The notes under the pieces were generated by a model. That model had not been told where the DNA came from. It searched no databases and saw only the letters and a list, made by a program, of their open reading frames with translations. This document shows, piece after piece, positions 6,124 through 64,000 of a stretch of DNA of 64,000 nt (position 1 is its first letter; each line of letters starts with the position of its first letter). A program made the position numbers and the translations under genes. The stretch is from positions 15,006,001 through 15,070,000 of the forward strand of contig CM097885.1 in NCBI GenBank assembly GCA_044892525.1, written 5' to 3'. Source of the DNA: Schmidtea polychroa (taxonomy: Eukaryota).

Positions 6124-6175
6124 GTAACTGCAATATTTTGAATGGATAGTTATTTATCTGTGGTTTATTCTTCAG

Positions 6176-9397: not shown

Positions 9398-9552
<155 letters not shown>

Positions 9553-10121: not shown

Positions 10122-10160
<39 letters not shown>

Positions 10161-11100: not shown

Positions 11101-11106
11101 TGTACT

Positions 11107-11742
11107 CAGTGCCGGATTTAGATCTGATAAGGCCCTAGGCTATTTGAAATATGGGGCCTTTATAAGGCCAGATATCATATCTCAGCGCCAAATATGATTT
11201 TCGGATACCTAGCGGGATAAACTGAAATAAAATTAAGAAATATAGGTAGTGAAATAATAAATCTTTAATTTTAAATGATTTTTACTCATAACAAACTTAA
11301 AAATGCAAACTCTGATAAAAAGAAGCAAAAGATCTTTTTAGAAAAACAATTTACAAAGGCTTATTGTCTAATCTCTTGATTCATGCTAAACTGAGTAGTT
11401 TATCACTTTCTATACACATGAGACTGAGGGAACATGATTTATCTTGAGTCATTGTTGTTTTAAATTCAGAAGCTGTCGAAATTTATCAGTAATCTCGGTT
11501 GTCATAATTATGGCTAAACAAACCCTAGGCACAATAGCGCTTTGCCTTTGTTCTTCGAATTGACGTCCTAAAAGAAATGGATGACGAGTATGGGACGTTT
11601 CAGACATGCGGCAGTAGGAAAAATAATGCTGCGGTATATTTAAGTCGACATGACAATTTCTCATTCGGACACTTTTTCTGGCGCTAAGAAAGCAATAGCC
11701 CTATGCTATAGCCTGTGTAGCCTATACGTAAATTCTGCACTG
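11107..11742. mobile_element. Non-autonomous hAT element
   Basis: TIRs CAGTGCCGGATTTA / CAGTGCAGAATTTA; flanks CCTGTACT / CCTGAACC (6 of 8 match, decayed TSD). Confidence 0.75.
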
Positions 11743-11917
11743 CCTGAACCTATAAAATCATTCGAAGCTTTTCATTTTGCTGGAAATTTTGAATCTTTGT
11801 TTCTGGAGTTTGTTCCTGAAAAATGATCATTAATATGGGAGATCAAAAAAATATAGATATTTCTAATAAAATAATCTGTGAGACTTGAAAATAATAATCT
11901 ACTTTGTTTACCTTTAG

Positions 11918-12170
11918 GCGTTTAATAGAATTAAAACATACATTGATTATGCCACGAATAATAACAAGTTGACAATAGAATATGGTGGGAAATGTGATGA
12001 TTCGATTGGATACTTTATACATCCGACAATTATTAGGACTTCCGATCCAGGCGATAAAATTATGAAAGAGGAAATATTTGGGCCGGTATTGGCTGTTTAT
12101 GTCTATCCAGATTCATCGATAGAAAACACTCTAGATTTGGTTGACTCTACAACTCCTTATGGTTTAACAG
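11918..12170 (+). CDS. ALDH4A1: P5C dehydrogenase exon
   Basis: AFNRIKTYIDYA...GGKCDDSIGYFIHPTI...MKEEIFGPVLAVYVY...TPYGLT; AG/GT bounded. Confidence 0.93.
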
Positions 12171-12985
12171 GTTTTATTATAAGTTTATTCATTTTAATAT
12201 ATTAATATTTATATAATAATATTTTATAATAAATCAATTATGTAACTCGTTCACTGTGATCTCGATGTTTGATGACTGATGTGGAAATATTTGTGTGTGT
12301 GCAATAATAAATAAGTTTGCATGTCTATTATTGATCTGTATCAATAATAACTCGTAAACTAATAATACTCAGTTTGGATTTTCAATTTAATGTTTCTAAT
12401 CCACAAATGAGTGTAAATAAAATTTAAATACACAAAAATTCGAGTGGAAAGTAATTAAAATTCTAAAAAAAATAAAGTACAAAAGTTAATTAAAAATTTG
12501 AAAAATCAATATTTTTCGGGAAAGGTATTTGCGGATTGTTAGGGATATTTAAATAATTAATTTATAAATAAAATATATATTATATTATAAGTAAAAGTAT
12601 AATAAGTATAAAAGCTGGCACGCATAATTAGCATTATTATTTAATTAATTAATTCGCCATTTAAATCGGGTGTTTTAATAATACCAGATTTAGGCAATAA
12701 TTTGTATTTTGTATTAAAAATAAATATTTGTAGATTACTAACTGGTTATTATTAACACGGATTGTAAACAAAAAGATGAATACGAGTATAATGATTACAA
12801 ATTGATTTGGAGTTCCAAGATAGATTTATTATTTAAATACAAATTAATTAAAATCTTGTTGACAACATTGATCATTTCAAACCTCTGAGCTTGACAAACA
12901 TAACAAACAAACCTGTCAATTGGTGGAAAATTATTTAAATTTATTTTAGACGAATATTTAAAAAAATAGTGATATATCTTATGAT

Positions 12986-14128
12986 CAGAGCCGCATTTGC
13001 TCTTGAGGCGGCCCAATGCTAAAAATCTTATTGGACCCTTTTATAATTTATTCGCTGTTGTACCCGGCTTCGCCCGAGTTTACATTTATTATAATAATTC
13101 ATTTAAATTAAATTTTGTTTAATGATGTTATCACGTTCCAGTATTAATTTTATAACAGCTTCAATTCCATGTTTAATTCACAGTAAGAAAAGCTTTCAGA
13201 ATTAATTTCAATTTGTAAAATCGAAAAATAACTGGCAATATATTTCCAATTGCAAACTGGTTCACTAATCAAATAAAATTCAAATTCTCCATGTTTGAAT
13301 TCTGCTTTGACTAAATTATATTACTTTCAACTGCAAGTAGCAAGCATATAATAAATTATTATTTATATGGTAAATTGCTGACCGGAAAGACAAACAAACA
13401 GACTTAGGGTACCCTATGGGTGGTGATCTCGAGTTTAAACATAGCCTATGACCTGTCTCGAGTCAAATGAGGGTCACATGCAAAATTTCAGCACCCTTGG
13501 TCCAACGGTGGGGAATTCTATGGGTAACAGACAAACAAACTTTCATCTTTATATATTAGATTTGTAGTTTATTTATAGCATTTTGTTAAATTACCAAATA
13601 AATAACACTAAAAGAATGGAGAGGTCATTTATGGACAGTAAAACAACATATTTTTCTTTCACTTCATAACTCTAGTATTTACTCAATGACTATGGAAAAC
13701 AATACTTTGTTATGATTTTAAAGGAGATGGGTCACAAATTCGAGCTGGAAGGAATTTTATCATTTAAAATCATGTAATTTTGTGTAGAAAGAACTATTTG
13801 CACTAATCCTTAGAGTGTTTTGTCAGAAAGTATATTTTAGCAACTGCAACTTGTTTATTTAAACATGTAATTTGATCCCGAGAAAGAGATAAATATTGAA
13901 ATAGCAAAAGAGCAAAATATTTGATAATGAAGAGAAAGTAGGAAAAATCAATTAAAAGTACAAATTTCCAAAATCAATATTTATCAGTGAAACATTTATA
14001 AACAGAGAGCAAGTGAAAAGATTAACATGAATGCAATAGTTTTAAATTGTTGAGAGGTTGTTGGTCAATATTATTTAAGAAATCCAAATCCAGCTTTGTA
14101 AATCTGCCTAAGGGTAAATCCAGACCTG
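12986..14128. mobile_element. Non-autonomous hAT element with a nested Helitron
   Basis: Perfect 8-bp TSD CTTATGAT (12978-12985 and 14129-14136); imperfect TIRs CAGAGCCGCATTT / CAGGTCTGGATTT. Confidence 0.85.
13051..13561 (-). mobile_element. Non-autonomous Helitron (Lep1-like layout)
   Basis: Minus strand starts (A)TCTAATATATAAAG followed by a GTTT/GTCT microsatellite, and ends with the GC hairpin CTCGGGCGAAGCCGGG plus a decayed CTRR end. Confidence 0.7.
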
Positions 14129-15203
14129 CTTATGATATGCTCGTAGTCCAAACTATTATTGTCATAAGCATTAAAATGTAGAATCAATGTGAATTGGTTA
14201 TTATTGACAATAGAATCCTTGAAATTACTGTATTGGAAATAAAACTTATTTGATTTAATTTAAAGGGCACTTAGAGTCAGACTACAAATTGTTTCCCGCT
14301 GAATTTATTTAATTACCCAACATTAATTACGTTTTCTAACAACAGTTAAAATTAAAATTTATATAATTTACAATTTCTTTCTGGGTGAATAGTAAAGTTT
14401 TTTTGCATTTGAAATTTGTTAAACCTAAAGTAAATAAAAAGAACTGAAGAGTTCAAAATAAATTCTTCGTGGACTCCAAATTTCATTGAAAAAGAAATTT
14501 CTTTATTATGAATTTAAATGTATTGAACTCGTTCAATCAAAATCAAAATATTCACGAAAAAAGTAGAGAATAATATATGTACACTTAAATCTCCTGATTT
14601 TTGATACTCCCTCACCTTATGCATACATTCGCAATACGGCCTTACAGTATAGGAATGCAATAAGTAGCCAATGTTTTTAATATTAGTTTTAAGAATGAAA
14701 TTCTAGAATAGTTCTCATTTAGTATCTATAATACTTTATTGTCTCATAAGCAGGATAAAGTTTACCAAAAATAATAGTTCTGATCTGTTTCTGGAACCAC
14801 TATTAGAAAGAACATAAAAATTAGTCAAATATAAATCAAAAATAATCAAAAAAGGTTTTAATATCATTCACATTTCCATACAAGATAAAATCTAAAATCC
14901 TTAGCATTATTTTTTGGATAGATTGTATAGTGAATCCGCATATCAGCGAGATATATTGTTATATATTACATAATCGATTATCTCACCTTGTCATTAAATT
15001 AACTTGATTGAGTAATTAACTATTTAGTAATAGGAAAGATTATTTTACATAAGATAAAATTACTAATGATAAAAATCAAAATATATTAATAAATTTTTGA
15101 CAAGTATTAGTTATGACCGCATTCACTGCTAAGATAAATTCCTATACAAAAAATCAAAAAATTTCACTATGAATCAAAAAATTATTTGGCAATTATAATT
15201 TGA

Positions 15204-15380
<177 letters not shown>

Positions 15381-15628: not shown

Positions 15629-17023
15629 TTACTTTTTACCCTTAACGGCTTTACCTTTAGCTGCTTCAGGGGCTTTTTTGTTAACATTCTTGATGACACC
15701 GACAGCAACGGTTTGTTTCATGTCACGAACGGCAAAACGTCCCAATGGGGGGAATTCCATGAAAGTTTCAACGCACATTGGTTTAGATGGAACCATCTTA
15801 ACGATGGCTGAGTCACCAGATTTCAATTGTTTTGGAGCGTCTTCTACTTCTTTACCAGTACGACGATCAATCTTTTTCAAGAATTCAGCGAATTTGCAGG
15901 CAATGTGAGCAGTGTGACAATCGAGAACTGGGGTGTATCCTTCATGGATTTGACCTGGGTGGTTCATTACGATAACCTGAGCTTCGAAGTCGACTGCTCC
16001 CAATGCTGGTGCGTTCTTACTGTCACTGCAAACGTTTCCTCTTTTGATATCTTTAACTGAAACGTTCTTGACGTTGAACCCAACGTTGTCTCCAGGAACT
16101 GCTTCAGGAATTGATTCGTGGTGCATTTCGACTGATTTAACTTCAGTGGTTAAACCGTGTGGGGCAAAGGAGACAACCATGCCTGGTTTGATTACACCTG
16201 TTTCAACTCGGCCAACTGGAACTGTTCCAATACCTCCAATCTTGTAGACATCTTGGAGAGGCAATCTCAATGGTTTTTCAGTTGGTCTGGCTGGTGGATC
16301 AATAGCATCCATAGCTTCCAATAGGGTAACTCCAGTGAGGCTTTCTTCCTTTTTGGTAGCTCCGTTCTTTCTCTTGATGGTCCATCCCTTGAACCATGCC
16401 ATATTGGTGCTTGGGGTAACCATGTTGTCTCCTACCCATCCAGAAATTGGAACGAAGGCGACAGAGTCTGGATTGTATCCAACCTTTTTGATGTAACCAG
16501 ATACTTCTTTTTTGATTTCGTTGTATCGGCTTTCACTGTATGGTGGTTCGGTTGAATCGATTTTGTTGATACCGACGATCATTTGCTTGACACCTAAGGT
16601 GTATGCAAGTAAAGCGTGTTCTCTAGTTTGACCGTTCTTTGAGATACCGGCTTCGAATTCACCGACACCAGCAGCTACAATCAAAACAGCACAATCGGCT
16701 TGAGATGTTCCGGTGATCATGTTTTTAATGAAATCACGATGGCCTGGTGCGTCAATGACGGTGACGTAGTAGTTTGAGGTTTCGAATTTCCAAAGAGCAA
16801 TATCAATGGTGATACCTCTTTCTCTTTCGGCCTTGAGTTTATCCAAAACCCAGGCGTATTTGAAGGAACCTTTGCCCATATCTTGAGCTTCCTTTTCGAA
16901 CTTCTCAATAGTTCTCTTGTCGATACCTCCACATTTGTAGATCATGTGTCCGGTAGATGTGGATTTGCCACTGTCGACGTGTCCAATGACAACGATATTG
17001 ATGTGAGTTTTATCGCAAACCAT
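15629..17023 (-). CDS. EF1A: Translation elongation factor 1-alpha (464 aa, no CDS introns)
   Basis: [17 protein letters not shown] and [11 protein letters not shown] motifs. A probable 49-nt 5'UTR intron lies at 17027-17075 (GTAAG...TTTTAG). Confidence 0.99.
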
Positions 17024-30683: not shown

Positions 30684-31979
30684 CGTAGTTCGTTCAATAA
30701 TGCATCGGACTAACAAAGAAAGAATAACAACACAAAAAACTGAAACAACTTTTATTGAACTACATCAATTACTAGTTCGAAAAACACATTTAATTATTTT
30801 TCTATATGACTACCATTGGCCTATTCCATCGAATAACCAAATCTTGAAATGCATCAGCAAAAAGATGTCCAGGAATCTGTGCAAACCACTGTTAAACAAA
30901 TTGCTGGAGTGAATCTGATGTCTCAAATGATGGCCATGCAATGCATTCTTTATGTGTTTGAACAAAAAAAGTCTCTCGGAGCCAGGTCCGGGCTGTAAGG
31001 TGGGTGTTGGAGAAGTCTAAAACCACTCTTTTCTGTTTAACATCGTAAACATTGCTTGTATTGACAGGAGCATTATCAACAAAGAGCCAAAGTGGAACAT
31101 TTCTTGATTTCCGTTTCTTTGCACGGCATTCCTCAACCAATTTTGCATAGTATTGACCATTTATTGTTTGTCCATTAGTCAATAAATCTAGGTGAATGAC
31201 TGCACTTTTGTCCCAAAAACACTGAGAGCATCAGTTTTTTTCAATGTGATTTGTCATTTCTCATTCTTTAGAGGAGGTTTCTCTTCTACATGTCTTCATT
31301 CAGATGATTCCCGTTTGGTTTCAGGTAAGTATAATGAAAGAGATGTTTCGTCCTCAGTAACAATATTATTAAGAAATGCATCACTATACTGATTCAACAG
31401 TTGCAAATTTGACAATGTGCTGTTGAGGTGCATTTCCTTCATGTCAGGAGACAGAAACTTTGGAAATAAATCGGGAGCATAATTTGAGATAGCCTAATTT
31501 CCCAATGATGTTGTGACAACTATCCAACACTTATTTTAAGTAATTCTGTTATTTCACACACCTTAGTTCGTCTTTCAACTCGAATAATCGCCTCACATTG
31601 CGTAATTTTTTGATCGGAAATTTCAGTTAGTCTGCCAACATTGGAATAATCCTGGTGCACACTTTCATAGCCATGCTTGAATAATGATATCCAACGATAT
31701 ATTGTGGATCTAGAAGGACATTTGTTACCATATGCAATTGCTATATCACAAAAATATTTCATCAGACGACTTCTTTAAAAGCACAGAATTTTATCACACT
31801 TCTGTATTCCACCTCATCCATTTGACGAAAAATGGAATTATAAGTACGTACGTCAGCCAATCAGATTATTTAATTTATGCATATAAACAAACATACGTGT
31901 AAGTGTTAAAACCAATTGGTTTGATTGGTTTATCATGTTTCTTTCTTAGTCAGTCCCAGCCATTATTGAACGAACTACG
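30684..31979 (-). mobile_element. Full-length mariner element (1296 bp) with a disrupted transposase
   Basis: Perfect 19-bp TIRs CGTAGTTCGTTCAATAATG with TA flanks; ATG at 31821; motifs IVTEDET, LFVDNAPV and HPPYSPDLAPRDFF. Confidence 0.95.
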
Positions 31980-37199: not shown

Positions 37200-38090
37200 A
37201 TATTTTAAGTTAAGTACAACTAGATTAAACAGGTGATGGTCTACACACTTTCTCCAGCGATGCAAGAGTTTTACAAAAGGAATTTTTCAAGAAAGGAATC
37301 CATTTTCTCAATCATTGCTATTGTTTCCGCACTTTCGTGCATTAGGGTTTTGTTTTGAAGTAGTCATAGAGGGAGACCCCGTGGCTTTCGGTGTTACGCC
37401 TGTATGTGTCCACGAGATTACTGTAATAGGTGGAATTAATTCGCAGACATTTTTCAGTGAAATCCGTAAAAATTATGCCACTTTGATCCAAATAAATTGT
37501 CAACATAAATTATTTTCGATGACAAGTTTAAGATCTTATCTTGTTTTATCCAAAGTATTTCCATTTGCTGGCCTCACGCTTTGTCTCAGGAATATACCGG
37601 AATAAAGTGGTTTCATTCACAATAATGGTATATCTTAGGAATTGGTCACCAATTAGTTACCAATGGTCACTCACCATAATCATAAAAAAATGTAAAGTTT
37701 GCCGTGCAGTATTCCCTCTGGTTTTCATACATTTCTGAGGAAATAAAACGTGGATCGAATCTGGATATCAATTTTATTAATCCAGATCCATTTAGGATGG
37801 CATCCACACTTCTGGTACTTACATTTGACCGATGTGAGATATCCTTAATTTAGTGTTCTTATTTCAAAATTTTTAAACATTACTCTCTCTTTTGACAAGA
37901 AATTTCACAGGAGCAATCAATGTTCTCATCATCAAACACTGACTGGCGACCATGTTTGAACTAACTAAACCAATCGTTTATTATGGTACGAAAGGGGCAT
38001 ATATTGCCATGAGCTGTTTGCAACTAATTCCATATTTACTGGTTGCTATTACCATGCAAAACAAGAATTTTATCACACTTCGAAACACGA
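37200..38090 (-). mobile_element. Highly decayed mariner element
   Basis: Fragments FLRYTIIVNETTLFRYIPETKREASKW, LDQSGIIFTDF, INSTYYSNLV and LHRWRKCV. Confidence 0.65.
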
Positions 38091-47479: not shown

Positions 47480-47667
47480 TGCTCAGTTTCTGACCAATAA
47501 GAGAAGGAGTAGAAAAATCTCTACATTAATTAATGAATAGTTGTTCTCGCTTATCTTGTCACGCACTGTCATATCGACAACCAATAGGAATCGAGCTGTG
47601 AATAAATGAGTATTTTACCATCGAATAATTTCAGGTCGATCAAATCTGACAACAGTCAATAATATCA
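47480..47667 (+). promoter_or_regulatory. Putative zic proximal promoter
   Basis: CCAAT boxes at ~47494 and 47581 just upstream of the ORF; TSS not determined. Confidence 0.35.
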
Positions 47668-48508
47668 ATGGTTTCCTATCCGTCATTATTGATCACCGAC
47701 AATTTGTCAAAAGATATTAAATTTCATCAAAATATACAAATCAACCATCAATTGCCTTTATCAATGACAACATCTGAAACCGAGAGATTTTCGTCTACAA
47801 ATCACAATAAAAATTTTTGTACAAATGATTTACTATTGAAACGATATTCCTATGATCCCAATTATGATTTGTTGTCCTCTCATCCAGCAACGGTTTCTGA
47901 TAATTATCCGCCTGAATTTCTAACTTCAAATTCATTATCATCGTTTAGTGTCAACGCTTTGAATTCGGCCGATATTCTATCCCAGACTTCTGCAAATGAT
48001 TACCAAAACTATGGAATGTATGGAAATCATTCCCAGAATCATCACCAATCTATGTCGTGCAATCCTGGTACGGCATTGGAGCCCCAAATTCTCCATTCTC
48101 AAACCGTAGCTCCTATTCATCCAGCGATGAGTTCCTACAGTCACCAAGCTGCGTTCTATCAATTCTTTCACAGGAACGCTGTTTCGGGATTCAGAACCGA
48201 GTTTCAATGCCTGTGGTTGGATAAACACACGAAAGAAGAGCGTCGAACATGCGGGAAATTGTTTTACACAATCAATGAAATAGTCAACCACTTAACACTT
48301 GATCATGTCGGTGGGCCCGAACAACTGGATCACACTTGTTATTGGAAGAACTGTACGAGAGATTTTAAACCATTTAAAGCGAAATACAAATTGGTAAATC
48401 ATCTCCGTGTCCATACGGGAGAGAAACCATTTCAGTGCCCGTTTTTAAGCTGTGGAAAATTGTTTGCTCGAAGTGAAAATCTGAAAATCCATAAAAGAAC
48501 TCACACAG
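47668..48508 (+). CDS. zic: Zic/odd-paired C2H2 zinc-finger transcription factor, exon 1 (ZF1-3)
   Basis: ZF-NC-like [12 protein letters not shown]...[14 protein letters not shown]...[20 protein letters not shown]...[15 protein letters not shown]; donor G|GTAAAT. The paralogue (zicA or zicB) cannot be assigned here. Confidence 0.95.
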
Positions 48509-49512
48509 GTAAATGATTTGATTTAATAATTTTAATTTTCAAAATCAACTTATATTAAATGAATAAGTTTATATGAAGGAAGGGGACACTGTCATCTTTT
48601 TTATATCATTTAAAGATTTATTTTTATATAAACTCTTCAAATTATAACATAAAACACCTGAGGGCCTTTTTATAGCGGAGCAAGAGAAAGGGTTTAATCT
48701 CCACGTTCCCACTTTTGATTGCACTTATTTTGTACTTCTTATTTTCTTTTGGGACGATTTATAAAATTAACACAATTAAAAAGGTAATTAAAATGCAACC
48801 TTCAGGAACTCTAGGCTTTTAGTCTTCGCACTTGATACGTATAAGCGGCACTTTGAACACAAAGATTTAATTTCATCCCTGTCTTGGTATCATCAACATT
48901 GTTGTCACTTTCTTTCACGTTTTACATTCACAAGAGTTCAGAGAATATTGAAACATTTTGTAAATAAATTGTAAAAAATTCAACAACACAAAATCCAGCC
49001 CCCTCCAGGTGCCGATAATGGCTTTTCTCCCATTAAATCCAATTCTTCATCATTATGAAAAAGTTATTAAACCAATTTATAATATATTATATAGTCAAAC
49101 CAATTATATATAACGAAAATTATAATTATCTCACGATAATCCATTTTGTTTGACTGATTATTATGCAATTTCTGTGTCACAATTAGGAGATCCAATACTG
49201 GTCAAATGCCCCCCCCCCCCAACAAATAATATTCAATAATAACATCAGTTTTACATGAAATGGAACCGAATTTTTTGAAAATTCAATTAAACGTAATAAT
49301 TATTTTATAATTAATTACAGACATGGAAATTTTAAAAAGATATATTAAAACCACCGACAACATAGGGTAAAAGCAAATATAAACAAAACATTATTTTATA
49401 ACGACCAATATAATAAACAATATAGATGGACACCAAAAATTCACATTTCGTTGGACTAGATGATTTGCTTGGATGTATTTCACCAACACAATTTGTTCTT
49501 CATTATCCTCAT

Positions 49513-49889
49513 CAGGCCCGGTTCCAGTCATTTGGCGGCCCTAGACATAGCTACATGTTGGCTACTCTACCCATATATGATATATTAATGTCACCATGTC
49601 AATGACCTGGAGGAAAACTTATTTTCGTTTTTTTTGAGTTTTTTATAGAAGTATCGATATTACATATAAAATATTATGAACACAATGTTAATATACACTT
49701 TCGTAAAACGAATGATTAAAAATTATATATCGAATAAGCTAAAAATTAATTAAAAATATTTATCAAACGACGTTACATTATTTTTTTTTTAATTTCAAAA
49801 AATATTTTTTAGAGGCTTATTTAAATTATTTTGCAAATTTGACGGCCATAAGCAGCTGCCTAGTTTGCCAAATGGAAGAATCGGGCCTC
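49513..49889. mobile_element. hAT-like MITE in the zic intron
   Basis: TIRs CAGGCCCGGTTC / GAGGCCCGATTC; no clean TSD. Confidence 0.55.
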
Positions 49890-51620
49890 GCTTTCTCCTC
49901 ACATGCATATTTTGACGAGCCTCCTATACTAGATCGATATAATAATGCTGACTTGACTTTGTGCGGTTTTCCTTTTCCAGTTTCTAGTCTAGCTAAACAA
50001 TTTTACACTCCTCAAGTATATCTACCAAAAATTAATTTCCAAAAATAAATAAATAGTTTGCACTTTAATTTGTTCAGAAAATTTTTTTCGATTGCATAAA
50101 CAATTAATTTGTCCAAACTTTGCTCTATTTAGTCACATTTGTATAACTTTCTCTAAGTGAATTATTTTTGTTGTCTTTTAGTTACTATTCTTGGTTTTAC
50201 TATTTTTTAGTCCGACTTTTATTAGCATCCAATGATATATATTAATTCATTTTGTCCTCATTTTCTCTCAGATTCGATCAATATTTGTTTTGTTTACACA
50301 CACACACACTCAAAAAAAGTTTATGTTGAAAATTTGTGTTAAATAAATAAAATATTGATTTATAGCCGGAAAACAAGTAAAAGTAACGGAGAATTGAAAA
50401 TGAAATGAGATCAATAATGAAAAGGATAAAAGATATTCTTAATGAATATTTTGATTACTTTTGAAAATAGTTACTTAATAAATTTTATATTAACCTAAAT
50501 TTATTAAATTAACATTTTAATTTGTGTTTCATTTAAAAAATGTCAATGTTAAGGCTAGATTCAGAATTTGATAGGCCCATTGTTCGGCTCGTTTTGAAGT
50601 AAAACCGATACTAACGTCCATTCTTGCTGTAAACTTTCCAAGAGTAGCACAGTTCCCCATTTTGGTCCATATTATACATTTTTTATTAATTTCCTGTATA
50701 TTGTCCTGTTTCTACATGATGGAAATCCAGTTACATATGCAACATTCTTTATAATTAATGTGCGTATGTTGATAAAGGACTTTAAGGCACCGAAAGTGTA
50801 AGTTCTCACTCTCAGGCAACTACTACTGACAGTTGACTAATAATGACTTTCATAACAAATTCTTGGTTTGATAAATTTTTCTTCCCTGTCAGACACATTT
50901 CAGCTTCAACATGAGTTTAACCTTTTCGTTTGCCAAACAAAAAAATAAATCAAATCAGTAAAAATCGGTGAAATCCCAACGAGGTAAACATAATCTACTA
51001 AATCAAAATGTATTTACTTGAAAGTAAATAAACGAAATTGTTTTCATGAAAGATTTCATTATAAAGGCGCTAGTGGTTCCGAAAGTGTAGATAGCATGAA
51101 AATTTTTAAAATATTTTGCACTAAGAATTGCATTAGAATGGAACTTCAGACTTTCACATATAAATTAAGGCTTCTTGAAAACCAATTCAGAGTCACTAAA
51201 TGGAAACGGTTATTTTTATTTTAAATTAAAATTTTTAAATTCTTTATATTAGCTTCACCGGCGTTGAATGTATGTGGCACGCAAATCTTGTAAGGGCTAA
51301 TCAACCCATTTCCATTCACCCAGTCGAGCTGACACTTAAAAACAGATCACAATGCGTTTTATTACGTTTTGGTGCTACAATTGCATAAAAATACACTATC
51401 ACATCGAAATTGTATTTTCAGAGATAAAACTTGAAATTTTAACGGCTTTTTTAAATTTTGAAAAAAAATTACATTTGAAAATTATTTGAAACTTTAAGAT
51501 TTTGCATATCAAGGATTTATACTAAAGACTGTTTTCAAATTCTTTTTATCTATAAAGTCTTAATTATTAGGCAAAATGTTTAATAGGTGATGTAATGTCT
51601 AAATCTATTATGCATTAAAC

Positions 51621-52030
51621 CAGTGCTCTTCAACCTTTCGCAGTCGTCGGAACCCTTCCAAAAACTTTCGCAGTCGTCGGAACCCTTCCAATAAAAATTT
51701 CCCCATGTATATGTGGGCATGTATATATGTATTCAATTGGGGTTGTCGATGTGGTAAAAAAATCGAATTATTCTCAAATATTTTTGATAATTTATACTTT
51801 TCTTACATTTTTAGTAAATAAAAAAAATTTCAATGTCATTGTAGCATTTCATAAATTTTCAAGGCGTAAAATTTTACAACAGAAAATTTTCAATGTATAA
51901 AATATAAATTATTATATGTTTATTTATATTGAAAACTTTTTTTATAAGAAATCATAAAATTTGTTCGCGGAACCCATAATTTTTTATACGGAACCCAAGG
52001 GTTCCGCGGAACCCAGGTTGAAGAACACTG
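51621..52030. mobile_element. hAT-Charlie MITE in the zic intron
   Basis: TIRs CAGTGCTCTTCAACCT / CAGTGTTCTTCAACCT; perfect TSD CATTAAAC; GGAACCC subterminal repeats. Confidence 0.93.
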
Positions 52031-52646
52031 CATTAAACAACTTATCGAGCATATAATGTTAAGAAATTTTTAATTTAATTATGTTTTGTATAATATAGAT
52101 GCCAGAAACATATTTATTAGACTTGACAAATACATACATTTAAGCACATTAAAAGTCGTTCTGCTATTTGTTGATTGTTTATACGAATAATATGTTAGTG
52201 ATTTATTTAATTACATATCGTTTTCTTCATAGTTATTTTTTCAAATTTATCATAATGTTTTATTATTTCTTGTTTTCTATAAAATAAATTATTTTTAAAT
52301 TTTGTTGATAAATTTTGTTAAAATAATGTATTTAAATAACCTGAAAAAGTATGGCTATATTTATATGCAACCCTTTTCCACAATAAATTTTCCATTTTTT
52401 AAAGTGGATCTCAGGCTACGAAATGTTGGGAATTTTTGAGATGTAAGTTAAATCTCAACTGGATTGTTTAAAAAAGTTACGACAGTTTGCAATAAATTAT
52501 GTTTATTATTTAGTATTACTTACTACAGGGGTGACCAAAGATCATAGAATGCTTGGCGAAAAATTAGCGATTTTAAAAAATTCTGGCCGGAAAATTTTTT
52601 AATTCAATTTAATACACAAACCAACGGGCTTTATAATATATGTTAA

Positions 52647-52892
52647 CCATTTCGTGGACACATGAAATTTAGAAAATGTTCGCAAAGTGACACAAGTAAT
52701 TATTTGGGTTTAAATTCAGATTATGGCTAAACATAAGAGTACAAAAAAAATCTAATTGGGTCACTAACTCAAATCTGATTGCTTCTGTAAGGGTACAACA
52801 TATGCTCCTACATATAAAACCAATGCAATCGCCTAACCCTAACCCTTAAGCAATTCATAGTGTCGACCTATGCCGACGTATCCACGAAAGGG
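52647..52892. mobile_element. piggyBac-type MITE nested in a decayed hAT MITE (~52526-53035)
   Basis: TTAA on both sides; TIRs CCATTTCGTGGA / CCCTTTCGTGGA; outer termini CAGGGGTGACCAAAG / CTTTGGACACCCT. Confidence 0.75.
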
Positions 52893-53274
52893 TTAATCAT
52901 TTCTTTAAAAAAACATATTTATAAAAAAATGCGAGAAAACATCGATTTTCTTAAATTGGAAATCAATTTTTATTTTCTGAAAATAAAATATAACAAAATA
53001 TTTTTATAATATTTTAATCACACTTTGGACACCCTTAAATTAATATGATATTATAAATTTCCATTTATTTAAAAATTCCCCAATACCCTTCAGGGTTTCC
53101 TGACCAAATAAATCAGCTGATTTTATAAACTTTTAAAAATCCAAATTATTTTGTGCAATATCTATGATGTTTCCCGATGCAAAGATTTATTGTCATTTAA
53201 TTCAACGTTTTTGTTTTAATTATATATTTATTTTGAATTAAATTCTTGAATTATGAATGCCTTATTAATCTTAG

Positions 53275-53852
53275 GAGAAAAACCGTTCAAATGTGACTTT
53301 GAAGGATGTGACAGGAGGTTTGCCAACAGTTCCGACCGTAAGAAACACATGCACGTGCACATGAATGACAAACCGTATTTCTGTAAGCAAGAAGGTTGTG
53401 ATAAAAGCTATACGCATCCAAGCTCTTTGCGAAAACATATGAGAATTCATAACATTTCACCAAATAATGACTACAATATGGATGCCAATTCATACGATAC
53501 CGATTTCAACCAGCAACTCAATAGTTGCCCAAAAATGCCTAAACACAACCAAAATCAATTGAAAGAATCGATTTCCAGTTTCGAGCACGATCATCGAAAT
53601 ATCAATCAACACGAACATTCTGGCTCTTCCAATAAACTCTTAAACTTTTTCCCTTTTCCTCATTCTTCGAATTACAAACAGAGACCTTGTCATATTAATC
53701 CAGATCAATCAAGCGTCTGGTTGCCATATCCTTATTTTGAGAATCCGTCTGGCAGTCGCAATCCTTTATGGTCAAAATCCTATCCGTCATTGTTCGATAT
53801 CACGAAACCTTCGTTCCTCGCCTCCAATCCACATTCAGATTCCGTGACGTAG
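53275..53852 (+). CDS. zic: Zic exon 2 (ZF4-5 and C-terminus); spliced product 472 aa
   Basis: TTAG|GA restores [31 protein letters not shown]...[18 protein letters not shown]. Confidence 0.95.
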
Positions 53853-54709: not shown

Positions 54710-55039
54710 CAGTAGGTAGTTAGTGGCTTACGGCAGCAATAGGGGGGGGGGGTAAAAAATGTTGCAAACTTTTGATTGCATAACTTTTTCCGTAGACATT
54801 TTTTGATTACATAATTGTTGCCGTAATGCCCAATGTTTTCTGGGATTTTAAATACAAAATTTTTTTTTTCAATAAACAAGCCAAGGATAAATATTATTTG
54901 GGTGGGTCTCCTTGGTCCTGAGAATTTCAATAGAAAAAGGTAGTCTTCAATAAAAAAGCATGGATTTTTCACACTATAGTGAGGGGATCTTCTTGGTCAT
55001 GAGAATTTCAATAGAAAAGGTGGTTTACATTAAAAAACG

Positions 55040-56066
55040 CATAGTAAATTTTTAAAATAAAGCAAATTATGGGTCTAAAATTTAAAAATAAAGTAAATGA
55101 TGGGTCTAAAAATTTAAGTAAATCAAGGTTCAGATTTATTTTTGAAATAAAGTAAATTATGGTCTAAATAAGTAAATTATGGGCTAAGATTTTTCAATTA
55201 AAGTAAATAATGGTTCTAAAAAATTAAATTACAGTAAATTATGGTCCAAATTTTTAAATTAAAGTAAATTTAGGTTCTTAAAAATTAAATTAAAGTAAAT
55301 TATGGTCAAAATTTTTGAATTACAGTCCAAAAATTTAAATTAAAGTAAATTATGGTCCAAATTTTTAAATTAAAGTAAATAATGGTCCAAATATTTTAAA
55401 TTACAGTAAATTATGGTCAACATTTTTCAAATAAGGTAATAATGGTCCTAAAAATTAAATTAAAGTAAATAATGGTTCTAAAAAATTAAATTACAGTAAA
55501 TTATGGTCCAAAAATTTAAATTAAAGTAAATTATGGTCCAAATTTTTAAATTAAAGTAAATTATGGTCCTAAAAAATTATATTAAAGTAAATAATGGTCC
55601 AAATATTTTAAATTACAGTAAATAATGGTTCTAAAAATTAAATTACAGTAAATAATGGTCAAAAATTTTAAAATTAAAGTAAATTATGGTTCTAAAAATT
55701 AAATTAAAGTTAATTAAGGTCCAAATTTTAAAATTAAATAATCAATGGTAAAAAAAATTTAAATTAAAGTTAAATAAGTAAATTAAAGTAATAATTTTTA
55801 AATAAGTAAATTAAAGTAATGTAATAAGTAAATTAAAGTAAGATTTTTAAATTTATTAACAAAAATAGAAGGTGTTTGAGAATTGAAATTTGTTAATGGA
55901 AATTTTAATGAATTATTTTTTAAGTAATTTTTAATAGAAATTTTTATGAATAATTTTCAATGGTAATTTTTAATGGAAATTTTTATGAATAATTTTTTAA
56001 GATAATTTTTAATGGAAATTTTAATAGAATAATTTTTAAGATAATTTTTAATGAAAATTTTTATGA
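55040..56066. repeat. Subterminal minisatellites: ~30-bp AAATTAAAGTAAATTATGGTCC units, then ~32-bp AATTTTTAATGGAAATTTTTATGAAT units
   Basis: Direct inspection; more than 20 copies of the first unit. Confidence 0.9.
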
Positions 56067-56136
<70 letters not shown>

Positions 56137-56153
56137 GTAATAATAAAAATAAT

Positions 56154-56194
<41 letters not shown>

Positions 56195-56381
56195 TAATAT
56201 TAATAATATATCAACCAAATACTATACAACACATAAAAAATTAACTAAACACATAAAAATAACTAGACACATAACAAAACATATAAACATTAACTAAACA
56301 CATAAAAATGAACTAGACACATAACAAACATAAAAATTTACCAAATAACAAATGTAAAGATATATAATTTATTCAATAAAA

Positions 56382-59300
56382 TTAGTCCTCATCGGACAAA
56401 ATAACGTCATCGATATCGATGTCATCTTCTCCAAAATCTTCATTTAATTCTTCCTCATCTTCTCCATCATTTTCTCCAACATTTTCTGAAACATTTTCTG
56501 CAATATTTAATTCACTTAATCTTACATGCCCATATGCAAGACTAGTATTTTTCCCCACCCAAACCCTTTTGTCATCTTTATTAGTTAGTGCTATTTTAAT
56601 ATTTTTAATTGTAAAAATTTGATGATTTTCGCTTGTTATTTTAGTCTGAGGAACCGAAAAAATCTGGTTAGTGTTATAACAATCCAGGTATGACTGATGT
56701 TTTATGTCACTACCTTTCAATGTTACACCTTTAGCCTTTTTTGTTTCCTCATCACCCAACAAGCTATAACATTTAGGTCTAAGAAAAACCCACTCCTTAT
56801 ATTTAAGACCTTTATTCTCGTCTTTGAACCTTCCAATGACTGAATCAAGGTTCTTACTATATAAGGAATGACAACTATTGTAATTGGAAGTATCCAATAA
56901 ATTATCTCGAACCATTGCAGGTAAAAGAACCTCAAGTTTACAGTTAATGACTTCGAGGAAAAAAGAATCTGTATCACCTGCAACGATATTAATTTTACAA
57001 TTAAACTCATTGCGAAATGATTCTAAATCCTTATATTGCAATTCATACATTCTAAGTTTAGATAGATCAAGTACAGATTGACCAATGTAACTCGGTCTAT
57101 CTAAACATATAGAATCTGAATTCAATAGTGCTGCAATTAAATTATCTGCTATTTTAATAGATTTTTTAAAAGTCGGTTTTGACGAATATTTAACTAATTT
57201 ACCGGCAGTTGTACAAAGACGAAGATTCATTCTTCTCTTTAAATTTTCAACTGTTTTGCCGTATAAACTGTTATTTAGCAATTTATAATAATTTTTATCT
57301 AAGCTATTTACGCTTTTTGATCTTAATTCGGTATTTGTATCTATATATTTTTTAAAAATTGGTGATTGCTTAAATCTTACACCCCTATTTACACGTGTTA
57401 CTTTAACACCAAGTTCCAAATATAATTTTAATAATCTCCAATGAATAACATAATTAGATTTTGGAAGATGAGTTAATAATAATTTTTCAACCTTAGATCC
57501 AGCAGGTTTCATTTTTTCAGCAGCTACAGGGAAATCATCCAACTTATCATGAAGCTCAGAAGGAATTACAAGATCAACTTCAAGAGTGTATCCATAAGAC
57601 AAAGATTCAAGATTTAAATTCCTACATTCATCCATTATTTTATCAAATCCATCAAGAACCCAACAAAATTCGCCACAAGGTAATGATTGACTTAAAGCCC
57701 AGCCATAAAGATTATTAATATCTATATATAGTAACTCGGTGTTCTCGTCGGTTTTTACGTAATGCTTATTCACAAAAGTAAGACCGCCTCTTATTCCACC
57801 CTCATAAAAGCTAAACATTTCGTTTTCAGTTATGAGTTCAATTGGTTCATTTAAAGACATTAATGCAGAAGACCAAGACATGCCTGGAATTCCGAAATAA
57901 TTCAATGGTTCCAATCTATTGTGAGCAATGGATTTCAACCGAAACTGATGAAAGAAATCAGCCAAAAGAAAACAATCAAGTTTTAGGTAGATCATCATAT
58001 AATCTAATAAAGTTACGCAATTAGTTTCTACCCAAATCTCCTGAGCTTTTTCATACTCAAGCTCAGTGACACCCTCCCAGATTGGTGGTAATTCATAAGT
58101 AGTTTGGAGAATATCTAAAGAAGTGGCGAAATTATAAGGGAAGATTCCTTTTTCACCTACTATAGTACCAGAAAAAGCAGAATTAGTAAAAGGCAAAGAA
58201 TTCAAAGTTTTGACTGCTTTAGCCAAAGAATCATTGACAAATTGATACGAATCAATGAATCTTAGGCTAATTTTACCTAAATGAGCAATCAAAGATATAA
58301 ATTTTTCCGTAGTTATTGGGATGCACCCTAAATTCCAATTTTTAAATTTATTTAATCCATATTTAAGTATATGGTGCATATCGTATCCCTTCAAGTTGTG
58401 AAATACGATAGGCAAAATTTTATTTATTTTTCTATTTACGTTACATGTGCTACAAGCTGCACCCAAGTATTTCCCCGTAAAATGATCGTGATCTCTAACA
58501 GGATCCACGATAGATTTCAAACAAAGATAACAAACCGATGAATTAACGAATTGTTGTTGCTCAATTTTCGTTAATTTAATCATAGGTTTCCTACCCATTT
58601 TATAATAAAAAGGAAGAACCTTATTTAATGCTATATCCTCTATAGCACTTAAAAAACTCTCGACGCAATCTAAACCTATGAACTGTTGATAAGATTTAGA
58701 TCCGTCAAAGTTATTTACTAGTAAAAGACCAGCAGATATTGGCATGTGTCGCTGAAAATGATCATTATCAGAAGGTAAAATAGCCTCAAAATCGGCATAA
58801 ACTACAAAAGGAGGAGTTACTGTTTTCGACCAGTCAGTAAACTGTAAGAATTTATTTTGAGGGAAAGTATAAAGAGTTGTTCCTAATTGATTACGTTTGC
58901 ATAATATTTCATGTTTTTCTAGTGCGTTTCTATTATTAAACCCATTCAAACACCGATGGCACCATAATGAACGTATGCGTGTAGGACAAGTAGTGTTGAT
59001 ACCACAATTCAATAACCTATTTAAATTGCTTATAGCAACGTAATGGAAATTGTTTCCTTTATTTAATAATAGTAAATTAATTACAGTTCCATTTAAAACT
59101 TTGGAACGATGTATAATGTCTAAATGTGGATGTTTTAAAACGTAATTATCTGTTAATTGTTTGTTATTGTCATAAGAAAAAACGTTAATTATTAAGCCTG
59201 GATTTTTGGCCTCGAATTTTCTAATGTCTTTTAATTTCATGGGTAAGTCCAATGGATTATATATTAACTCAGATAAATTATAACTGGATGTCCTATTTCT

Positions 59301-60229
59301 AGCATAACTACTAACCTCATCATATTTTAAAATAGCTAAAATGCTATATAAAAAACATGAATCATCGGTGTTTTTTATATTAATTAAACAATATTTATTT
59401 TTTAGATAAGTAGGTAGTTCAATGAAACTCCTACCACTTAATCTACTTAGCCTACTTATCTTTGTTATGGTGAAGTGAATTTCTGTTATTTTTTTTATGA
59501 TCCAGCTACTTCCTAACTCTGTGATATTACTTATTTTCTCGTTTAGTTCCCTAATGCCTTCGTCAAAAAATGAGGCAGTTAAAGGTTTTGCGTAATTCGA
59601 AATATTATTAACCTTTATTTCCCCATCTTTTTCAAATTCGATTGTTATTCCGAATTGAATTTTGACGGAGCCTAATTCGTTAATAATATCTCGTAATTTT
59701 ATAATTAATTGTTCAGGAAATATTATTTCCTTTATATTTAAGTCGCTAGTATTTAAACTTAATATTTGATGGGTACCCCTTAGATCTTTTTGTATTATGG
59801 GAACATTACCCCCTATTTGTATTATATTTAATCCATCCCAAGAATCAAGGGAAATATTATCTAATCCGACCTGGGATTCAACAACCAATCCATCATGGGA
59901 TTCGACAACCAATCCATCATTGGATTCCACAAAAGGCAATCCGACCTGGGATTCAAAAGAAGAAGTATCTAATTTAATTTTTTTATTTTTATTATTTTTT
60001 TCTATAGTTGAGGGTCTTTTAAAAACACTATCTTTTTTAAAATTAAACCTATCTAAATGATTTTTATGTTTATTATAAAAAACGCTATATGTTACGGGGT
60101 CACTAGTCTTACATACGGGACATATAAAATAAGTTTTATTATAATATTTTTTCGTATAATAATTCTCCATTATAGAATGGCAATTATTATCATGTTCTTT
60201 CGATGAACAATAATTTGGGTAAAGTATAC
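56382..60229 (-). CDS. polB: Protein-primed family B DNA polymerase of Polinton/adintovirus type, main exon
   Basis: ExoI VYADFE, ExoII FHNLKGYD, ExoIII YLKLD; Pol A YIDINNLYG, Pol B KLLNNSLYGK, Pol C GDTDS, plus PKCY and KAKGV; EndoVII/HNH insert CYLC...DHDHFTGKYLGAACSTCN; vOTU-like DDSCF...HY. Confidence 0.92.
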
Positions 60230-60434
60230 CTATAAAATAAAAATTTAATAAAAAAAATATAATTTAAATGAAATATTTTAGTAAATGTTTACGCAAAAAT
60301 TTGCAAATTATTATTATTTTACAAATTTTATTTACTAAAAAATAAAAATTTACTAAATTAAAAATATTAACATTTACTTAAATAAAAAATTATATTAAAT
60401 TTCCTTTAAATTATAAAAAGTAATCAATACTTAC

Positions 60435-60699
60435 ATTGTAAATTTTCATTTCGATTTATTGACACATTGACATAATTTTTTTCTTTATTCGTATTACCTA
60501 AATTATTAATTAATTAAATCAATAAATTAAAAATTATGTTTACTTTTTCTTTTCAAATTTCCTTTAATCTTAGATTTTAAATTGTCTTCATTAATATTAT
60601 CTAAATTAATTAATAAATTAAATAATAAATAAATTAAAATTTACCAAATTTCTGAATTTTTTCTCGGACATTCATAACGTTTTCTATTAAAGAATTCAT
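60435..60699 (-). CDS. polB: Three predicted small 5' exons of the pPolB gene (60699-60645, 60600-60544, 60497-60435)
   Basis: AAAAATG start; GT-AG introns of 44, 46 and 205 nt, all phase 1; the frame stays open into the main exon, giving 1340 aa. Confidence 0.7.
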
Positions 60700-61208
60700 T
60701 TTTAAAGGTTAACTATTTGTTAAATGTGACTAATGATTGATTATTGTTTATAGATTATTATTGTTTATAGATTATTATTGTTCATAGGAACAAATTCTAA
60801 CCAATCAAAATCAAGGAAGGGTAGGAAAAAATTAATTTATTTTAAAACACATTTTGACGCTAAAGTTGACTTATTTAACATTTTCATAATAATTTAATAA
60901 AAATAATGTGATGAACCCACAAAGTAATATCATTTTTCATCAAATTGCAAAACAGTAATAACGTTTTCATAAAATTGTAACAAAGTAATAACATATTTCA
61001 GATAAATTTTCAACAGTTGTAAAATATTTAAGCAAATTGTAACTAAAATAATAAAAATATTGCAACAAAGTAATAAAATAATAATGGTAATTAAGACAAA
61101 AAAATACATTATTTCGAAGACGGACAACAAATTAAAAAGAATATTGTAACTAAAATAATAAAAATATTGCAACAAAGTAATAAAATAATACAACATTTTA
61201 AACTCTAG

Positions 61209-61620
61209 ATCAATCCATTTTATAGAAAATTAAATTTTATCTATATAATATATGAATAAATATCCAAGGAAATTACGTTAACGTATAATAAATACAAATT
61301 TATCGTAAAAACATGTGTGTATTACACACAAAACAAGATACATAATTTCTAATCAATCCATTTTATAGAAAATTAAATTTTATCTATATATTATATGAAT
61401 AAAATCCTAAGAAAATTACGTTAACTGTATGAAAAATACAAATTTATCATAAAAACATGTGTGTATTACACACAACATACGAGACATAATTTTTAATCAA
61501 GCTATTTTATAGAAAATTAAATTTTATCTATATAATATATCAATAAAAATCCAAGAAAATTACGTTAACCGCGCGAAAAACTACAAATTTATTGTAAAAA
61601 CATGTGTGCATTACACACAA
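61209..61620. repeat. Three tandem ~143-bp repeats, each with a TGTGTGTATTACACACA-type palindrome
   Basis: Units start near 61209, 61351 and 61495. Confidence 0.88.
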
Positions 61621-61740
61621 AGCATCAAACTGAAATTGTAATTGCGCCATGTTGTAGAGAATTAAATTCTGCCTATACATGGTTACACTTAAATCTCGAT
61701 CAGACATGTGAAAAGAGACATAAAAGATAAAAAACAGTAG

Positions 61741-62967
61741 AGTAGTATGATGTGGGCCCGCCCGGCCAGGAGCCCGCTCGGCCACATATACCCCCTCCCC
61801 CCGTGTGTAAAATAATGTTAATAATAATATTTATATATCAGTATATAGATTTTGCACTGGGCTTTAAAATAAGTGTTTGATTAATAAATTCGGATGATGG
61901 AAACATTACTTTTGGGAAGAAAAAAAGTAGGTCACCGCTGGACCAATTAATTTAAAAAAATTACGTAATAGTTCTAAAAATATTAGGCATCGTTCTAAAA
62001 ATATTAGGCATTGATTACGTAATAGTTCTAAAAATATTAGGCATCGTTCTAAAAATATTAGGCATCGTTCTAAAAGTATGACGTAATCATTCTAAAAATA
62101 TTAGGCATCGTTCTAAAAATATTAGACATCGTTCTAAAAATATGACGTAACCATTCTAAAAATAAGAGGCATCGTTGGGTGAGTCATTGGGTGAGTCATT
62201 CTCTTTGTTAATATTAATGATGATGATACCTTCAATAGCTCATTCGAAAGGTCTTGGACTGAGCTTTAAGATGAGGTATCGTCCAATAAATTCCGTTGGT
62301 GGGAACATTAATTTTTGGGATGAAAAAAAGTGTGAGCCCTCCCGGCCACATAATTAAAATTAAATGACCTTGAAAAAATAAATGACCTTGAAAAATTAAA
62401 TGACCTTGAAAAAATAAATGACCTTGAAAAAACAAATGACCTTGAAAATAATAAATGACCTTGACCTTTTATTTAAAAATTTGACCTTGAAAATAATAAA
62501 TGACCTTGAAAAATGGTCTCGGGAAAACGTTATTAACTTTGCCGATGTTAATGATGATGATACCTTCAATATCTCATTCGAAAGGTCTTGCACTGGGCCT
62601 TAAAATGAGCTATAGATCAATAAAATCTGTTGGTGGGAACATTAATTTTTGGGACGAAAAAAAGTGTGAGCCCGCCCGGCCAATTAATAATATTTTGACA
62701 AATAATAATAATTTAACGTTGAAAAGGTGGTCATCAATTGTTAATAACATTAAAACTATTAAAGATATATAAGATACCTATAGCTCATTCGAAAGGTCTT
62801 GGACTGAGCTTTAAGATGATGTATCGTCCAATAAAATCTGATGGCGGGAACAATATTTCTTGGGATGAAAAAAAGTAGGAGTCCTCTGGACCAATTAATT
62901 AAAACAAAAAATTAAATTAAAAAAATTTTTTTTTTCTGGGGGGAGGGGGGGGAGGGGGAGGGGGTAT
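61741..62967. repeat. Composite repeat block: four ~110-140-bp units, 21-bp and 18-bp arrays, inverted C- and G-rich tracts
   Basis: Begins AGTAGTATG; units near 61850, 62214, 62548 and 62770; (CGTTCTAAAAATATTAGGCAT)n at ~61970-62175; 8 x TGACCTTGA at 62365-62509. Confidence 0.85.
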
Positions 62968-64000
62968 ATAGTGTCCAACAAAAATGGACCAACAACTAAA
63001 ACAAGTTGGCTCCTTGCAAAGATCTTGAAACCTTTATTAGACACGATACTACACCATCTTCAAAGCAGCGACTGCCTCATGACAAGACTAAATAATAACA
63101 TGATTTGTCATAGAGAATTCCAATACCCATTTAGTCTTGATGTCGTATCACTATACACATCTATCGAACCAACAGAGGCTATTCAATGTTTAGAAAAGAA
63201 ATTAAGAGAAAGCAACTTGTTAATAAAGGAAATGAATATCGAGAATATCACCAAACTACTTACTGTTATCCTCGAGAACACCTATTTTACCTTTGAACAA
63301 AATATCTATAAACAAGTTAAAGGTCTGCCTATGGGTTCTAGCATATCAGGACTGCTAGCAATCATCTTTATGGATAACCTCGAACGACAGACACTGAGGA
63401 CCATACAACCCATCGGTTTCTATGCAAGATATGTAGATGATATCTTCATCACGACCAAAAACAAAAAAGAAGCGGAGGAAATATTTCATACATTCAATGC
63501 GGCTCATCAAGATATTAAGTTCGAAATCGAATATCCGGAAGAAGATGGATCCCTCAATTTATTGGATTTGAGAATCAAAAGAGAAGAAAATACTCCAACA
63601 TACGGGTTCTACAGAAAACCAGCTCGCAAAGAAATATTTATGCACCAAAGATCAGCGCTTCCATACTTACAGAAAGTACATGTCATAAGAAACGAGAAAC
63701 GAAGAATAGCCAATCGATGCACGGAGAAAAACGAAAACTTTAAAGAGCAATCAAATTTCAATAAAATCCTACACCGAAACGGATACCAAGGTGAGGACAT
63801 TGAAAGAATGAATTCTACCCCAAGAAGATCTAGGGAATTAACACAAAAGAATCAGAAATATTTCTATCTGAATATCCCATTCATCAGTGACATACTCGAC
63901 TTCAAGATCCTGAAAGAACTTAAACGTACCGGTCTTCCAATTCGGATAGCACATAAATCTTGGACATTGAGAAGGGCTCTGGCAGGCAACATAAATAGAG
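62968..64000 (+). mobile_element. 5'-truncated Penelope-like retroelement; open RT reading frame runs off the window
   Basis: Stop-free frame of ~344 codons: IVSNKNGPT, FSLDVVSLYTSI, YKQVKGLPMGSSISGLLA, YARYVDDIF, LNLLDL, FYRKP, NGY, LNIPFISD. Confidence 0.93.

Follow-up and report, generated by a model that had tools for sequence, protein, structure and literature searches.

The stretch analysed here (the window) comprises 64,000 nucleotides (nt) of Schmidtea polychroa DNA (assembly GCA_044892525.1, contig CM097885.1, positions 15,006,001 to 15,070,000 of the forward strand). Its minus strand carries, between positions 60699 and 56382, a gene encoding a family B DNA polymerase primed by protein (pPolB), of the Polinton type. 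The data suggest that this gene is probably the spliced pPolB of a palindromic, polymerase-only Polinton derivative that is present in hundreds of copies, originated by fold-back at a nested Polinton end, is replicated by its own polymerase and would depend on a full-length relative for the integrase. The pPolB gene forms one arm of a very large palindrome, which is more than the window alone could show.

Gene structure and splicing

An earlier reading made from the letters of the window (the sequence-only reading) had proposed leader exons of 55, 57 and 63 nt, three phase-1 introns (44, 46 and 205 nt) and a product of 1340 amino acids (aa). Gene-model reconstruction reproduced this structure in the sequence:

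60699-60645, minus strand: pPolB exon 1, with the start codon and 55 coding nt (gene-model reconstruction)
60644-60601, minus strand: intron 1, 44 nt, GT..AG, 95% AT, phase 1 (gene-model reconstruction)
60600-60544, minus strand: exon 2, 57 nt
60543-60498, minus strand: intron 2, 46 nt, GT..AG, phase 1, precisely skipped in a single contig from run X1
60497-60435, minus strand: exon 3, 63 nt
60434-60230, minus strand: intron 3, 205 nt, GTAAGT..AG, phase 1, with Cys at the junction codon
60229-56382, minus strand: pPolB exon 4, 3848 nt, aa 60-1340
61140..61715, no strand assigned: four tandem 144-bp repeats upstream of pPolB, a putative promoter region

The spliced exons are free of stops and encode 1340 aa, and the open reading frame starting at the first Met of exon 4 encodes 1262 aa. 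Without splicing, the frame from the ATG at 60699 reached a stop at codon 22. Eleven exon chains were admissible, each starting from that ATG, and those other than the proposed chain either skipped exon 2 or 3 or used weak sites within intron 3. The GC content was 16-26% in the leader exons versus 5-10% in the introns. When 1.2 kb of upstream sequence was dinucleotide-shuffled 500 times and searched by the same rules, no shuffle yielded a chain of at least three upstream exons (0/500); 480 had no upstream exon, 19 had one, and 1 had two.

Sister copies of the element provided arms in which the leader could be scored (one arm at a tile edge was left out). All seven start and splice signals were intact in 36/57 scoreable arms and the leader was missing in 21/57, so that the splice sites proved to be conserved in sister copies, with 7/7 signals in 36/36 leader-bearing arms. 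Intron 1 was 12 nt longer in a diverged subfamily, where the exon lengths were unchanged. A recurrent deletion of ~0.7 kb (window 60125-60838) was also observed, by which both arms of many copies have lost the leader together with the beginning of exon 4.

Among the runs listed none is catalogued as RNA; run X1 is a set of assembled contigs that was only guessed to be RNA, and it was compared with no DNA run. One of its contigs (depth 5.6) contained a joint of 46 nt with CT..AC ends, coinciding exactly with intron 2, and the short side of this joint was anchored by 61 letters. As a partial control, intron 2 was present in 36/36 leader-bearing genomic arms. Of the junctions proposed earlier for a check, that of intron 2 (60544/60497) was matched by this joint, and introns 1 and 3 were absent among the 10 joints listed for run X1. 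The depth of this run fell from 21 to 3.7 in the bin of intron 3 and 2.1 in the bin of intron 2. Runs X2, X3 and X8 yielded no joint within the leader. In run X6, which bears another organism label, 76% of the sampled words from the pPolB 5' region were present.

It is very unlikely that the three small exons arose by chance and that translation begins at the first Met of exon 4. Several database relatives are annotated from the equivalent Met, leader peptides are unconserved between families, and two of the introns were not found among the listed joints. The shuffle control, the exact intron-2 joint, the GC difference between exons and introns, and the conservation of the acceptor with its Cys-forming junction in four other families argue against chance. 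The host-like size attributed to the introns was confirmed for EF1A, which has a 49-nt GT-AG intron immediately before its start; for aldehyde dehydrogenase, the other gene named, a scan for introns recovered none.

Polymerase domains and fold

The codon at the intron-3 splice junction encodes Cys (C59), which completes the motif C59-x6-C-x4-H-x3-C. The remaining domains lie in exon 4, in the following order (residue numbers):

66-75, remainder of the first Cys/His motif; from 95, a second Cys motif, followed by a disordered linker
putative terminal-protein (TP) domain, then vOTU (Cys350, His454)
536, ExoI; 625-655, HNH/endonuclease-VII-like insert; 668, ExoII; 806, ExoIII
893, Pol A; 1041, Pol B; 1143, Pol C; then an acidic tail

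The exonuclease, polymerase and vOTU labels are in part what we take these motifs to be. Cys350 and His454 of the vOTU-like domain were invariant across a 17-sequence alignment. A structure model of the first 1196 residues of the exon 4 product had a pLDDT of 83, and in it an alpha/beta domain folded with confidence lies ahead of the vOTU. The best fold match among solved structures was phi29 polymerase (E 8.5e-19), and the best among viral models were bidnavirus-like and adintovirus polymerases. Pfam at E 0.001 gave no family for exon 4; PF03175, which is annotated on 55%-identical relatives, missed this pPolB. A profile search of solved structures matched phi29 only weakly (E 0.056), and the match of Endonuclease_7 to the HNH insert was below the cut-off (E 0.002). 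The closest database proteins were unnamed, with 43-61% identity. The first Cys motif was seen in 2/17 database relatives examined, and P0013 and P0014 encode that Cys in one continuous frame. By its motifs and fold matches, the protein is a protein-primed family B polymerase.

Domain naming follows the accessible text of PMC11161782, in which TP-vOTU-exonuclease-palm is the pPolB layout. The present protein resembles the pPolB of that text in the vOTU Cys/His pair, the exonuclease and polymerase motifs and the phi29-like fold, and differs in its added spliced N-terminal leader and Cys/His motifs.

A palindromic element in hundreds of copies

The gene is contained in an element with the following parts, in which families B and E are two of the full-length Polinton families described below:

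54711..61740, no strand assigned: left arm of the palindromic element, with an inverted right repeat in complete sister copies
54711..54740, plus strand: outer terminus beginning AG, whose first 25 nt are common with full-length family E
55141..56200, no strand assigned: subterminal satellites of ~30-bp and ~13-bp units with an AAT run, related sequence being found in family E ends
61741..62969, no strand assigned: non-palindromic centre, a mini-element with ~60-bp imperfect inverted ends of a family B Polinton
62970..64000, plus strand: 5'-truncated Penelope-like retroelement (reverse transcriptase and GIY-YIG), joined within the right end of the centre

Complete copies were 13.4-15.0 kb long and consisted of two ~7-kb arms (6.5-7 kb), each with one pPolB, arranged head to head. 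Their termini read AG..CT, and a 6-bp target-site duplication (TSD) occurred in 16/18 copies having both ends. The window copy lacks a right end: its centre, in which 973/1229 nt correspond to end sequence of family B, is broken off on the right at ~62969, and the right arm was not found in the next 18 kb. The outer terminus that it does have is flanked by a 6-bp TSD in sister copies, and a complete sister with the same centre is located at G000:C1:48708623-48724160. The inner flanks of the centre are one sequence in inverted orientation, without a TSD, and the inner ends match family B.

Exact matches to the terminus numbered 748 genome-wide (370 forward and 378 reverse; control 0 and 0), among them 28 of the family E variant. 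From the terminus counts, ~370 elements of ~14 kb are estimated to amount to ~5 Mb. A 701-bp leader query gave 40 scored matches at ~100% identity, mostly as divergent pairs. Each of the best 150 polymerase-core matches listed was 100% identical and lay on contig 1; 128 of them formed 64 head-to-head pairs. Among the other 22, which include the window, the 5' side was read in 21 and a second arm was found in most; none of these 21 unpaired-looking arms had an attached capsid or integrase gene belonging to it. Likewise, the 5' side of 17/17 apparently unpaired copies had no match to PRO, MCP, mCP, INT, ATPase or TBP, and complete palindromic copies contained no integrase, capsid, ATPase or protease gene; capsid, packaging ATPase and protease genes were confined to full-length families A, B, C and E. 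Capsid or integrase genes as constituents of long-spaced or unpaired copies were considered and rejected, these being nested insertions or second arms.

Several variant palindromes were observed. A 6.9-kb copy (G000:C1 ~179.8376-179.8446 Mb) has its fold-back point within pPolB and hardly any spacer, and is flanked by a 6-bp TSD of its own. Six palindromes of 13.7-18.8 kb have identical outer termini, no pPolB and no other Polinton gene. At G000:C2 ~70.31-70.34 Mb the host flanks are inverted too, with arms that extend over 16 kb at 99.9% identity. In most copies the two inner ends of the centre belong to two types, but some copies have chimeric ends and in one both ends are alike; the mixed ends look as if conversion tracts extend from the stem into the loop. 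A remnant of a second palindromic pPolB family lies to the right of the window (G000:C1 ~15071.7-15078.1 kb); it has a ~170-bp mini-element with family A-like ends at its centre, and one of its inner flanks has a 50-bp stretch (86%) in common with the inner flank of the window element. At G000:C3 ~134.882-134.912 Mb, an entire Polinton of an unrelated family is doubled into a palindrome of ~30 kb whose arms are 92-95% identical.

Partial domestication, with exons gained after capture by the host, had been offered by the sequence-only reading as an alternative. The intact 1340-aa frame, the host-like introns, the position next to a Zic gene and the loss of the right arm in the window copy would fit it. 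The gene does not, however, have the properties of a domesticated gene (single or low copy number, no mobile ends): it has Polinton ends and 6-bp TSDs, the 748 exact termini and the uniform identity of the best 150 core matches indicate hundreds of near-identical mobile copies, the window copy is nested among others on the tree, and the identical splice acceptor occurs in full-length Polintons. Frameshifts in 17/32 arms and the absence of the leader from 21/57 also speak against it. The domestication reading is largely refuted, and we consider it extremely improbable.

Identity of the arms and selection

The arms were 99.0-99.9% identical in 6/6 copies read first. Within a copy they differed by 0-3 substitutions per 3.4 kb in 16/17 copies, and the medians to other arms were 37-72. 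Variants private to both arms of one copy numbered 28 and single-arm variants 10, the latter count excluding the window arm and one chimeric copy. The partner arm was strictly nearest in 11/17 copies. On the arm tree, from which both arms of the 6.9-kb copy were left out, the window copy fell among other copies. The open frame was of equal length in both arms of 44/64 pairs, compared with a mean of 4.0 and a maximum of 12 in 10,000 shuffles.

Copy number and selection among paralogues had been proposed as a check; there are hundreds of copies, and across 32 arms pN/pS was 0.13 for variants shared by at least two copies (46 non-synonymous, 87 synonymous; 3.5:1 expected) and 0.34 for single-copy variants. 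Shared polymerase variants are under purifying selection. A frameshifting indel was present in 17/32 sampled arms. The arm samples were picked via top matches and are biased to young copies and to contigs 1 and 2.

Arm identity could instead result from chromosomal conversion after insertion, or from an assembly in which polishing has inflated it, rather than from a hairpin intermediate. It is known from assembled sequence, to which polishing may contribute, and the host flanks are inverted in 2/18 copies, in one over 16 kb. Single-arm variants, one-sided nested insertions and one-sided frameshifts do occur, however; 16/18 copies have unique flanks and clean TSDs, and the 6.9-kb copy combines a new fold-back point and almost no spacer with its own TSD. 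We therefore regard this explanation as unlikely.

Full-length relatives and the shared splice acceptor

Genome-wide, a single integrase query matched at least 107 loci at 94-100% identity. Nine of the ten loci that were read are full Polintons, with a pPolB 57-63% identical to that of the window, and in all three full Polintons with recovered ends the termini differed from those of the palindrome. Family A was tried as the helper and rejected, its termini being different and its pPolB 62% identical. A Pox_A32 search led to other Polinton families and not directly to a helper. Family E, represented by three full-length loci, has the same outer 25 nt as the palindrome, a pPolB body 96% identical, and a gene set of PRO, MCP, two mCP, INT, ATPase and a TBP-like gene. 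Among full-length relatives this family is the closest and, judged by these sequences, a natural candidate for the source of integrase in trans.

One family E Polinton is located at G000:C1:43441396-43458301; between its two integrase frames lies a 42-nt GT-AG stretch with repeated ends, probably an intron. In a family B Polinton (G000:C1:229969835-229999998), most of the integrase is gone and a palindrome copy is inserted 44 bp past the pPolB stop; its capsid module is 95-97% identical to that of family A, and its pPolB and ends differ.

The homology between the palindrome and family E stops at the intron-3 acceptor. The leader of family E is a single 226-nt tandem-repeat exon followed by a 1248-nt intron and is unrelated to the palindrome leader, and alignment of the palindrome leader with the family E upstream region gave no homology. 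The intron-3 acceptor itself is conserved in Polinton families A, B, C and E. A phase-1 acceptor before the Cys motif was present in 11/11 full-length family A, B and C loci in which the exon was found, one of which reads GAG and not TAG. A T|GTAAG donor was found upstream in 8/9 family A loci, in family C and in family E; in family B there was none within 2.6 kb upstream.

Since the acceptor is common across families whose leaders are unrelated, the junction appears to be conserved and the leader exchangeable. This argues against a special role of the KRK patch or of exon skipping, to which the sequence-only reading had drawn attention: the basic KRK patch of exon 2 does exist, and exons 2 and 3 do have in-frame lengths, but skipping of either exon was not observed, and the leaders of the other families lack the patch. 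Nor is splicing an adaptation of the window copy, the last acceptor being common to full-length Polintons of four families. The more general proposal of a Polinton replicase that uses host splicing is upheld by the intron-2 joint, the shared acceptor, the shuffle control and the fold matches.

The palindromes could also be wholly passive defective genomes for which helpers provide both polymerase and integrase, the pPolB of the arms being a hitch-hiking relic that is occasionally spliced. Leaderless and frameshifted arms, palindromes with identical termini and no pPolB, and the abundance of full-length Polintons with integrase would all be consistent with this. The low pN/pS of shared variants, the intact start and splice signals of every leader-bearing arm, the spliced contig of run X1, and a leader wholly unlike that of family E that nevertheless keeps the phase-1 Cys junction are not what a passive relic would suggest, and on balance we think a purely passive element rather unlikely.

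A model for origin and spread

Under the preferred reading, a palindromic derivative replicated by its own polymerase, host splicing would yield a 1340-aa TP-vOTU-exonuclease-polymerase protein in which the last junction completes a zinc-binding motif. The leader exons would be exchangeable modules that chiefly provide a promoter and a start codon. Fold-back priming is established for breaks beside inverted repeats of 42-229 bp, according to the accessible part of PMC7999016. Here, the nested mini-element may have broken at its right end, so that its 3' end could pair with the left inverted end and be extended back along the pPolB arm; protein-primed replication by the element's own polymerase would open the resulting hairpin into a palindrome. 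Displaced single strands could then refold into a 7-kb stem with a ~1-kb loop, and repair or re-copying would equalise the arms. Family E or a sister would provide integrase in trans, as the TSDs suggest.

Several observations weigh against this model. The RNA support is one contig covering one intron, from a run guessed to be RNA. The free hairpin or linear form, its replication and its mobilisation in trans are steps that we infer, and none was observed. None of the loci examined revealed where the leader and promoter block (60230-61740) comes from, and pPolB is frameshifted in 1/3 family E loci. In one chimeric copy the arms are 197 substitutions apart, and in 6/17 copies an arm of a different copy is at least as near as the partner arm. 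The low pN/pS may be a legacy of autonomous ancestors and not a constraint acting within palindromes. With 21/57 arms leaderless and 17/32 frameshifted, many copies evidently lack a usable polymerase and yet spread or persist. Palindromes without pPolB made up 5/6 further elements retrieved via the E-type terminus, with one more copy besides; as leaderless, frameshifted and pPolB-less palindromes spread too, a purely self-driven model is disfavoured. The two copies of 18 with inverted host flanks argue against a purely extrachromosomal model, since fold-back or conversion must then act in the chromosome as well.

In a more far-reaching version, which we put forward tentatively and do not hold to be the expected outcome, the element might be a semi-autonomous polymerase-only Polinton satellite that replicates through a 7-kb hairpin, re-templates one arm on the other in each cycle, exchanges spliced leader modules at a constant phase-1 junction and is more numerous than the full-length family with which it shares its ends. 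If this were true, the palindrome arms would record a Polinton replication intermediate hitherto only modelled. Planarian Polintons are described in the accessible text of PMC8532177 as piRNA-repressed and de-silenced during differentiation, and such repression fits the low expression.

Other features of the window

The window copy sits just downstream of a Zic gene, and the host genes and further mobile fragments in the window are:

47650-53852, plus strand: Zic-type zinc finger gene
15629-17020, minus strand: EF1A, 93% identical to a land planarian protein
~5960-15380, plus strand: aldehyde dehydrogenase gene
~4375-4674, 7602-8713, 30895-31230 and 37345-37509: mariner/DDE fragments

Comparison with known systems

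In the adenovirus E2B polymerase mRNA, too, the start codon of a protein-primed polymerase is carried by a small exon upstream. The present gene differs in having three coding leader exons, host-type introns of 44-205 nt and a junction that completes a Cys motif.

No description of a palindromic pPolB-only Polinton or of a spliced Polinton pPolB was found in the literature searched, Repbase, the 2006-2007 founding papers, subscription journals and supplements being outside its scope. Such an element is not described in the accessible text of 10.1101/2023.08.22.554363, PMC6431247, PMC8502044, PMC8097293, PMC11161782 or 10.64898/2026.07.28.741278; the last of these reports terminal palindromes of 52 nt only in that text.

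Polinton excision and replication rest on a model without direct evidence. With hundreds of young palindromes whose arm variants can be traced, whose centre is defined and for which there is a candidate helper, its hairpin or panhandle step can be tested on DNA alone. Spliceosomal introns in a Polinton core gene run counter to the usual description as intronless and imply nuclear transcription and host splicing, and annotation based on open reading frames truncates such spliced polymerases. In view of the copies with inverted host flanks, the palindromes are also a likely source of rearrangement.

With Polintons/Mavericks (adintoviruses), as presented in the accessible text of PMC8097293, PMC8502044 and 10.1101/2023.08.22.554363, the element shares a pPolB with OTU and HNH-like domains, AG..CT ends and a 6-bp TSD. 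Its total length is inside their range of 13-25 kb, and its full-length relatives in this genome carry PRO, MCP, mCP, INT and ATPase. It differs in its ~7-kb inverted repeats enclosing pPolB, far beyond the 100-1500 bp given for nematode Polintons in the available portion of 10.1101/2023.08.22.554363, and in having two polymerase copies and no integrase or virion genes. Its pPolB has three spliceosomal introns, whereas intact vertebrate Mavericks are intronless in the accessible text of PMC8097293. By the absence of integrase and virion genes, its 7-kb repeats and its introns, the element is not an autonomous Polinton; with ends shared with the integrase-encoding family E and no integrase of its own, it qualifies as a non-autonomous Polinton derivative.

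In its long perfect arms around a spacer with short imperfect inverted repeats, the element resembles the fold-back palindromes of PMC7999016, and in keeping helper ends while losing genes it resembles the snap-back defective viral genomes of PMC6140465, both as far as the available text of these sources describes them. As in a snap-back genome, long inverted arms bearing the helper's ends flank a fold-back point. Unlike the products in those texts, which are chromosome rearrangements or belong to RNA viruses, it forms a dispersed, TSD-flanked family that has retained its polymerase.

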